A stretch of DNA of 64,000 bases from Eubacteriales bacterium (GTDB lineage Bacteria > Bacillota > Clostridia > Oscillospirales > CAG-272). Shown here in pieces: positions 58,888-59,701 of the stretch (position 1 is its first letter; each line of letters opens with the position of its first letter). The DNA lies in contig JAZRUG010000032.1 in assembly GCA_045652425.1 (NCBI GenBank), forward strand, positions 111,858 to 175,857, written 5' to 3'. Below the pieces are notes generated by a model, which searched no databases, was not told the DNA's origin, and saw only the letters and a program-made list of their open reading frames with translations. The position numbers and the translations under genes were made by a program.

Positions 58888-58908
58888 AAATTATCTCCTT
58901 TTTGACCA

Positions 58909-59081
58909 TTATCAAAAGGTACACCTTTTGATAATGGTCTCGTTTAATACGTTGGATGAAAAATCTGTAACTTTTTTCGAAATTTTGTCGCATTGAATGG
59001 CTAAATCACTTGAATTTTTTGCATTTTTATGATATACCTATCTAAATAATTATGCCTATCAAAAGGTGTACCTTATGATAG
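58909..59081. promoter_or_regulatory. Putative invertible promoter flanked by 26-bp serine-invertase sites
   Basis: TTATCAAAAGGT-AC-ACCTTTTGATAA (58909-58934) and CTATCAAAAGGT-GT-ACCTTATGATAG (59056-59081), with complementary central dinucleotides. Internal TTGAAT-17-TATACC with extended TG. Confidence 0.72.
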
Positions 59082-59089
59082 TTACTGCT

Positions 59090-59701
59090 TTATTTGTCGC
59101 CATGAAGCAACCTATATTCCCGTAATCTTCGGTAAAACGTAGCTTCACTCATATTACATATCTTTAAGACTTCCGAAAATGGAAGTCTTTTTTGTTCCCA
59201 TTGTTTAATAATCTTTCCAAAATCATCCGGGACATCTATTTCGGGCCGTCCAAACTTCACGCCCTTTGCTTTTGCGGCTGCAATGCCTTCTGCTTGTCGC
59301 TTCTTGATATTCTCACGCTCGCTTTGCGCCACAAAAGATAGAATCTGCAAAACAAGATCAGCAATAAACGTCCCCATAAGGTCTTTACCATTACGCGTGT
59401 CAAGTAAAGGCATATCAATAACACATATATCCACACCGATATCCTTTGTAAGCACACGCCATTGCCGCTGTATCTCTTCATAATTACGTCCTAGCCGGTC
59501 GATGCATAGTATGTAAAGCAAATCACCTGACCTTAGTTTTTTAATCATACGTTTGTACTGCGGTCGTTCAAAATCCTTTCCCGATTGCTTATCCATAAAA
59601 ATGTTTTCGTCAGCAACTCCAGCATCGCTTAACGCAATCAACTGACGATCTTCATTCTGATCGGTGCTAGATACACGCACATAACCATAAATCTTTCCCA
59701 T
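59090..59701 (-). CDS. Small serine recombinase (resolvase/invertase, Hin/Pin-like)
   Basis: [36 protein letters not shown] and a C-terminal HTH (SEATFYR). Confidence 0.94.

Follow-up and report, generated by a model that had tools for sequence, protein, structure and literature searches.

The serine recombinase Mpi of Bacteroides fragilis inverts promoter segments of ~150 to 250 bp (polysaccharide promoters), and dimers are resolved by the Sin/Bin3 and beta-type resolvases of Tn552 and of plasmids from staphylococci and enterococci, whose targets are directly repeated res sites equipped with accessory subsites. Hin of Salmonella, like Gin, Cin, and Pin, is a small serine recombinase that works on two inverted 26-bp sites whose 2-bp core sets polarity, and Hin/hix carries its promoter on the inverted segment. 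The available part of a report on the Hin system gives hix sites of 26 bp, a segment of ~1 kb, and the participation of a Fis enhancer and HU (PMC3798978). A similar recombinase-adjacent promoter switch is already in print, since the accessible text of a 2026 study on Flavonifractor describes hin upstream of csrA-tldR loci, with ~120-bp inversions just downstream of hin and a FliA-dependent promoter (PMC13418256). EF_B0058-like small serine recombinases have been presented as markers of defense genes, a control of the cargo by inversion being only speculated upon in the accessible portion of that preprint (bioRxiv 10.1101/2025.10.07.681051), and a 2025 catalogue, as far as its accessible text goes, reports groups of invertons from gut strains, Clostridia among them (PMC11892184).

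Here, we describe a locus within a 64,000-nt stretch of DNA (the window) from a gut bacterium, Eubacteriales bacterium (CAG-272; GCA_045652425.1, contig JAZRUG010000032.1), whose whole assembly comprises 2,250,764 bases in 48 contigs. We consider it likely that the locus is a self-contained phase-variation module, in which a Sin-clade recombinase and an adjacent invertible sigma-70-type promoter switch a ligase-PASTA operon. It resembles Hin/hix in its small serine recombinase, its two inverted 26-bp sites with a polarity-setting core, and the promoter carried between them. Unlike in Hin, the recombinase gene lies outside the segment, which measures 147 bp rather than ~1 kb and thus leaves little room for an internal enhancer; Fis is, to our knowledge, absent from Firmicutes. 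With Mpi it shares a serine recombinase and a short promoter-bearing segment, but Mpi serves many loci in trans, whereas this genome holds one recombinase and one adjacent switch, and the site sequence differs. The enzyme is closest by sequence to the Sin/Bin3 and beta-type resolvases; in contrast to Sin/res, however, the promoter here lies between two equal sites whose cores are inverted, and the genome has no third site. The Flavonifractor system is alike in its occurrence in gut Clostridia, with the recombinase immediately upstream and a short promoter inversion immediately downstream, but it uses a FliA promoter and a csrA-tldR-flagellin cargo, whereas the promoter here is sigma-70-like and the cargo a ligase and a PASTA protein; sites, cores, phasing, and palindrome exchange are not described in the accessible text of that study (PMC13418256). 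The EF_B0058-like systems also pair Bacillota small serine recombinases with variable cargo, and some cargo of the present family is defense-like, but the accessible portion of the preprint describes no invertible promoter, and the cargo of the window has no PADLOC match. A literature search, with most subscription journals outside its reach, returned no description of 12-2-12 sites, phasing, or palindrome exchange. As far as could be seen, the phased spacing, the conversion of palindromes to hybrids, and the module boundary at the cargo-side site are undescribed.

Sites, recombinase, and promoter of the locus

The features of the locus are as follows (window coordinates).
56356-57129, minus strand: cargo gene 2, a membrane protein of 257 aa with one PASTA domain (PF03793, E 1.1e-8)
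57154-58887, minus strand: cargo gene 1, an acyl-CoA ligase-like AMP-binding enzyme of 577 aa (PF00501 and PF13193)
58895-58898, minus strand: RBS of cargo gene 1, GGAG
58904-59783, minus strand: portable module made up of the recombinase promoter region, the recombinase, and the switch (84% identity to L003)
58904-58939: extended palindrome around site L, perfect over 17-2-17 (repeat finder)
58909-58934: site L (cargo side), TTATCAAAAGGT-AC-ACCTTTTGATAA, 12-2-12, core AC at 58921-58922
58923-59067: invertible segment between the cores, 145 bp plus the 2-bp overlap
59010-59038, plus strand: sigma-70-type promoter with extended -10 (TTGAAT at 59010-59015, 17-nt spacer, TG at 59030-59031, TATACC at 59033-59038)
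59056-59081: site R (recombinase side), CTATCAAAAGGT-GT-ACCTTATGATAG, 12-2-12, core GT at 59068-59069
59090-59701, minus strand: small serine recombinase of 203 aa (PF00239, E 1.2e-28)

Sites L and R lie 147 bp apart from start to start, which corresponds to 14.0 helical turns, and the 24-nt arms of the inverted pair are 96% complementary according to the repeat finder. Searching for the 24-nt site pattern with up to 3 mismatches returned 2 occurrences in the window versus 0.00 expected from 100 shuffles, and in the whole assembly the pattern occurs at these two sites only. A single arm mismatch, TATCATAAGGT, is common to the window and to the related loci L003, L010, L014, and L041. Site R ends 8 bp from the end of the recombinase ORF (59090), and site L begins 21 bp from the ATG of the ligase gene (58885-58887). 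Direct inspection, the repeat finder, and the pattern search all bear out the original prediction of two inverted 12-2-12 palindromic sites 147 bp apart. The left site it had proposed is real, with the correction that the palindrome around it extends to a perfect 17-2-17.

The recombinase ORF is intact, with the catalytic Ser11 and the DRLGR motif aligning with those of Sin and gamma-delta resolvase, and the gene is present as a single copy in the genome. Its best solved relative is Sin/Bin3 (2r0q; 111.6 bits, E 3.2e-31, residues 4 to 191, with the catalytic region aligned), followed by gamma-delta resolvase (85 bits), Tn3 resolvase (77.5 bits), and Gin (4m6f; 68 bits). Its score against the NCBIfam Mpi model NF009949 (40.8 bits) lies below the cutoff of 272. 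On plasmids, the best relatives are recombinases from staphylococci and enterococci (~52% identity); among phage records, the best reach ~60%. A comparison of the C-terminal 60 residues with solved DNA-binding domains turned up nothing significant (best E 0.66). By these comparisons, the recombinase is closer to the Sin/Bin3 resolvases than to Hin/Gin. The half-site TTATCAAAA presumably resembles a hix half-site, a likeness that finds no support on the protein side, since the C-terminal 60 residues match no solved domain. The description of the locus as Hin-like therefore stands for the mechanism and the site geometry, but not for clade membership, because Sin/Bin3 and gamma-delta resolvase score above Gin and the C-terminal part is unmatched, and not for the length of the segment.

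The promoter of the window points to the 3′ end of the recombinase gene, away from the ligase. A simple consensus scan missed it because the scan requires a T at the last -10 position. Position 59038 is a C in the window and a T in L003 and in two metagenome contigs (X3 and X4, described below), which read TATACT; the lack of the final T had been flagged beforehand, and the comparison with the three relatives suggests that the promoter, although presumably active, may be weakened. After in silico inversion, the promoter would lie at 58980-58952 on the minus strand, with its -10 element at 58957-58952 and a start near 58945. The predicted ON leader of ~58 nt would run through a hybrid site to GGAG (58895-58898) and the ATG at 58887.

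Family-wide architecture and inversion in related loci

Relatives of the recombinase were sought in one genome per species, which yielded 524, and the best 80 (72 to 90% identity; Lachnospiraceae, Oscillospiraceae, Acutalibacteraceae, and others) were kept. The DNA immediately following the recombinase stop was then searched for the site pattern, with as many as 4 mismatches allowed. Two sites are present at this position in 52 of the best 80 of the 524 relatives, one site in 19/80, and none in 9/80, several of these last being cut by contig ends. The cores are reverse complementary in 53/53 loci including the window (GT/AC in 33, AC/GT in 15, AA/TT in 4, and GC/GC in 1), in line with the inverted orientation first proposed from the complementary AC and GT cores of the window. 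This covariation preserves exactly the feature that fixes the relative orientation of the sites for a serine recombinase. A res site was rejected on account of the inverted, covarying cores. The single locus with the palindromic core GC at both sites (L015; 2065-2088 and 1930-1953) would not have its orientation fixed, so that deletion as well as inversion should be allowed there.

Spacing between the sites falls into groups of 125 to 127, 135 to 139, 145 to 148, 155 to 157, and 165 to 169 bp. With one locus taken per cluster of similar inner segments (39 clusters), the spacing is phased at a period of 10.5 (Rayleigh R 0.64, p ~1e-7), and the control periods 7.3 and 13.1 are not significant. 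In most loci, a codirectional gene starts at most ~170 bp from the distal site. Promoters could be classified in 52 of the 53 loci, L051 being left out because its segment holds N. A promoter of the form TTGnnn-17-(TG)TAnAAT ends 10 to 24 nt (mostly 16 to 19) from one site in 49/52 loci; it faces the recombinase in 40, the window included, and the cargo in 9, with 3 unclear. Two of the nine, L052 and L054, have weak scores and were left out of the averages below, which leaves 7 cargo-facing loci; L054 looks recombinase-facing by both palindromy and alignment. The window fits the family layout, with its spacing of 147 bp, a gap of 18 nt between the -10 element and the site, and the ligase ATG 21 bp past the site. 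Two loci, L012 and L030, come from one assembly (contigs JAFTWW010000008.1 and JAFTWW010000026.1); some genomes thus hold several modules with different cargo, and that of the window holds one.

Inversion is evident from pairs of related loci. L064 and L073, from two species, have upstream flanks identical at 64/72 positions and a downstream flank and cargo identical at 77/80. Their inner segments match as the reverse complement only (117/136 versus 67/140 as they stand), and both cores are unchanged, which places the inversion exactly between the cores. The cassette type of the window itself is flipped in two metagenome contigs from runs of two different studies (X3 record 19, 2349 nt; X4 record 24, 500 nt). 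In these contigs, a recombinase of ~89 to 91% identity, aligned to the plus strand from 59057, is joined to the inner segment on the opposite strand, and the unaligned gaps of 23 and 21 nt are the exact prediction of the inverted model. Their cargo side differs, giving no alignment to the ligase at 85% likeness. In L003, which encodes a 90%-identical recombinase, the cassette is oriented as in the window. The invertible promoter of the original prediction is hence realized in related loci, in which the cassette occurs either way round and the breakpoints fall on the 2-bp cores; a single orientation across relatives, which had been named as an outcome that would count against it, is not what they show. 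The exact locus of the window occurs in one orientation only, across its own assembly and public contigs, and this copy presumably still flips. None of the public sequencing runs held more than 0.15 of the sampled words of the locus, and the material compared consisted of contigs. Ligase relatives in metagenome contigs (16 loci, 37 to 68% identity) had neither sites nor recombinase in any case (0/16), so that they offered no example of the ligase-linked switch in flipped form.

The two orientations also differ in the symmetry of the site surroundings. Positions 12 to 19 from the core are not conserved between loci, yet they are palindromic within a locus in one state only. The 40 recombinase-facing loci average 5.8 of 8 possible pairs at the recombinase side and 4.0 at the cargo side, which drop to 1.9 and 1.9 after in silico inversion, against a chance level of 2 of 8. 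The 7 cargo-facing loci behave the opposite way, with 1.4 and 1.7 pairs as they stand and 5.4 and 4.0 after in silico inversion. Mean hairpin energies are -18.2 (recombinase side) and -12.6 (cargo side) kcal/mol in recombinase-facing loci and about -9 kcal/mol at both sides in cargo-facing ones. Since palindromy exists in one state only, the cargo-facing loci are hybrids produced from palindromic parents by recombination at the core. In the window, the cargo-side palindrome has an arm of 17 and -24.0 kcal/mol, which becomes -13.0 after in silico inversion; the recombinase-side palindrome has an arm of 12, with 2/8 outer pairs, and goes from -11.1 to -7.7 kcal/mol, so that its hairpin is weaker than the family mean. 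The palindromy mark and the promoter direction agree on the state. The window is in the parental OFF state, as had been suspected, because its promoter faces the recombinase and its palindromes would weaken upon inversion.

A T-rich tail (at least 5 T in 9) follows the recombinase-side palindrome in the direction of the OFF promoter in 26/40 loci, as compared with 10, 10, and 6/40 in the other three directions; the tail in the window reads TTACTGCTT. This T-tailed palindrome is a putative terminator of the OFF-state transcript. In the cargo direction, no terminator lies between the recombinase and the switch, and the OFF state may therefore be leaky. Credible assemblies are recombinase facing in 40 cases and cargo facing in 7, counts that come from assemblies of related genomes and are not independent samples; the excess suggests either a predominance of OFF in natural populations or a bias of the switch.

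Cargo genes and genomic surroundings

Cargo gene 1 has matches in NCBIfam that all fall below their cutoffs. Its relatives number 7570 at E ≤ 1e-20, the best being 76% identical, and where named they are called acyl-CoA ligases. The PASTA protein is nearly an orphan, as the search returned only itself and one 85%-identical protein of 194 aa, and it had no match in any of the family and ligase-relative loci collected. Of its initial description as PASTA/DUF1292-like, the PASTA part holds, but DUF1292 has no Pfam support at E ≤ 0.01.

The first gene past the distal site was scanned in 48 loci. It encodes surface proteins (BspA-type LRR, SHIRT, Ig-like, SLH, dockerin), ATPase and defense-like classes (HerA-like ATPase, kinase-LRR, TIR/SEFIR, HEPN, helicase), or others (Wzy-like, epimerase, GNAT, Lgt, FkbH, SPFH, and many without a family), and it is an AMP-binding enzyme in L041, L045, and L050. 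PADLOC matched 7/43 cargo proteins, and generic domains probably account for two of these matches; the defense-like cargo of the family comprises HerA, a PD-T4-6-type kinase, bSEFIR, a PbeA-like helicase, and HEPN. The ligase and PASTA protein of the window had no PADLOC match. The ligase and the PASTA/DUF1292-like gene had been considered an unusual cargo for phase variation, a view to be qualified: switches of this kind also precede AMP-binding enzymes in L041, L045, L050, L139, and L147, and with at least five other such loci the ligase cargo is not a one-off. Four AMP-binding cargo proteins are only 24 to 31% identical and have a common N-terminal motif. The ligase family is mostly without a switch, which was found in 0/16 metagenome loci and in 2/41 species-genome loci (L139 and L147). 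L147 has a 61%-identical recombinase and divergent sites. In L139, the switch occupies 1825-1973 ahead of a ligase relative; it is recombinase facing (OFF type), its cores are TT and AA, and its sites are 125 bp apart. A third site lies at position 88, and the 2 kb upstream contain no recombinase of the family. This switch may be served in trans.

Homology to L003 (84%) spans exactly 58904-59783 (880 bp), with unrelated flanks on both sides, and in pairs of loci with the same module and different cargo, identity is lost no more than a few bases from where the cargo-side site has its outer edge, a pattern that suggests exchange of module or cargo at that edge. Among 41 close-relative genomes, 5 gave a match, confined to the recombinase part, and those searched for the ligase-PASTA operon did not contain it. 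The locus sits in a variable region, as synteny with the nearest congener (G002, 85%) resumes only at 61416. The surrounding features are as follows.
53343-53429: tRNA-Leu(CAG), the sole Rfam match at the gathering threshold in 52000-64000
53828-54823, minus strand: tyrosine integrase gene, after tRNA-Leu(CAG)
59876-60304: XRE-type regulator, before the large serine recombinase remnant
59876-61197: region of the XRE gene and a truncated large serine recombinase, whose frame is open from 60286

The tRNA gene followed by an integrase is the usual signature of a tRNA-integrated island; a direct repeat of the tRNA end was not found up to 64000 with a 12-nt seed. The ~1.5 kb at 54823-56356 are without a convincing ORF and contain three ~30-nt repeats at 55035, 55255, and 55450, at intervals of 220 and 195 nt, along with two copies of a 20-nt repeat (54995 and 55537); a short similarity to L021 lies at 55403-55583. 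The tandem repeat finder returned nothing in 54700-56400, and 54823-56356 had no Rfam match at the gathering score. The large serine recombinase remnant has no canonical start before 60370 and ends after 275 aa, its C-terminal half missing.

Proposed mechanism, alternatives, and reach

In the mechanism that we propose, recombinase dimers bound at the two sites would come together in a synapse, with the DNA between them forming a tight loop of 14 helical turns; cleavage at the cores followed by rotation would leave the segment inverted. In the OFF state, the promoter would fire toward the 3′ end of the recombinase gene, with the transcript probably stopping at the recombinase-side palindrome; as the promoter is aimed away, the ligase and PASTA genes would be left without it. 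In the ON state, a transcript begun near 58945 would traverse the hairpin, by then hybrid and weaker, before reaching the RBS and the ATG of the ligase gene at 58887. A single inversion would convert two long self-palindromes (mean -18 and -13 kcal/mol) into two hybrids (about -9), and the hairpins lost would be those that stop the OFF transcript and guard the cargo leader. A spacing of integer turns (13 to 16), if required, would imply that this resolvase-clade enzyme forms its synapse in a tight loop and needs no enhancer. A combined reading, namely that inversion both re-aims the promoter and dismantles the hairpins, that the synapse is an enhancer-free loop of integer turns, and that the cargo-side site captures cargo in an integron-like manner, is tentative and on the doubtful side.

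A decayed or locked switch, with a dead promoter or an inactive recombinase and with any expression of the ligase operon due to read-through from the recombinase gene, would account for several features of the window: TATACC in place of the TATACT of three relatives, the weak extended palindrome at the recombinase side, the single orientation seen at the exact locus, and the mobile-element remnants around it (the truncated large serine recombinase and the integrase by the tRNA). We nevertheless regard decay as unlikely, in view of the intact recombinase ORF and catalytic residues, the two intact sites, whose lone mismatch is common to L003, L010, L014, and L041, the retained -35 element and TG extension, and a cargo-side palindrome that is perfect over 17-2-17.

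The other alternatives deny inversion its role. The sites could serve resolution or mobility, as a res-like target or an attachment point of the module, with inversion as a side reaction, and the resolvases among the best sequence relatives of the enzyme (Sin/Bin3, gamma-delta, and plasmid recombinases at ~52%) would agree with this, as would the divergence of same-module loci with different cargo, which sets in a few bases at most from the outer end of the cargo-side site. Such a role is very improbable given the equal 12-2-12 geometry and inverted cores, unlike res subsites, the cores that stay inverted in 53/53 loci, the conserved promoter at a fixed distance from one site, the inversions rather than deletions seen in relatives, and a genome with two sites only. 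It is scarcely credible that the palindromes are transcription signals alone (terminators or operators of another protein), with the recombinase unrelated to them. Stable hairpins of -24.0 and -11.1 kcal/mol and the T-rich tails after the recombinase-side palindrome in 26/40 recombinase-facing loci are what terminators would look like, but complementary asymmetric cores, helical phasing, and half-site exchange are unexplained without recombination.

A recombinase-adjacent invertible promoter would bear on a group in which phase variation is far less charted than in Bacteroides, namely the gut Firmicutes. This compact, portable switch occurs in hundreds of Clostridia genomes, before surface, defense, and envelope-modifying genes. 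Its state is readable from sequence by two independent marks, the direction of the promoter and the palindromic or hybrid nature of the sites, which provides a scoring rule for assemblies, and an enzyme of 203 aa with 173 bp of DNA makes a small testable system. As to the organism itself, the prediction is that only a subpopulation would express the acyl-CoA-ligase-like enzyme and the orphan PASTA membrane protein.
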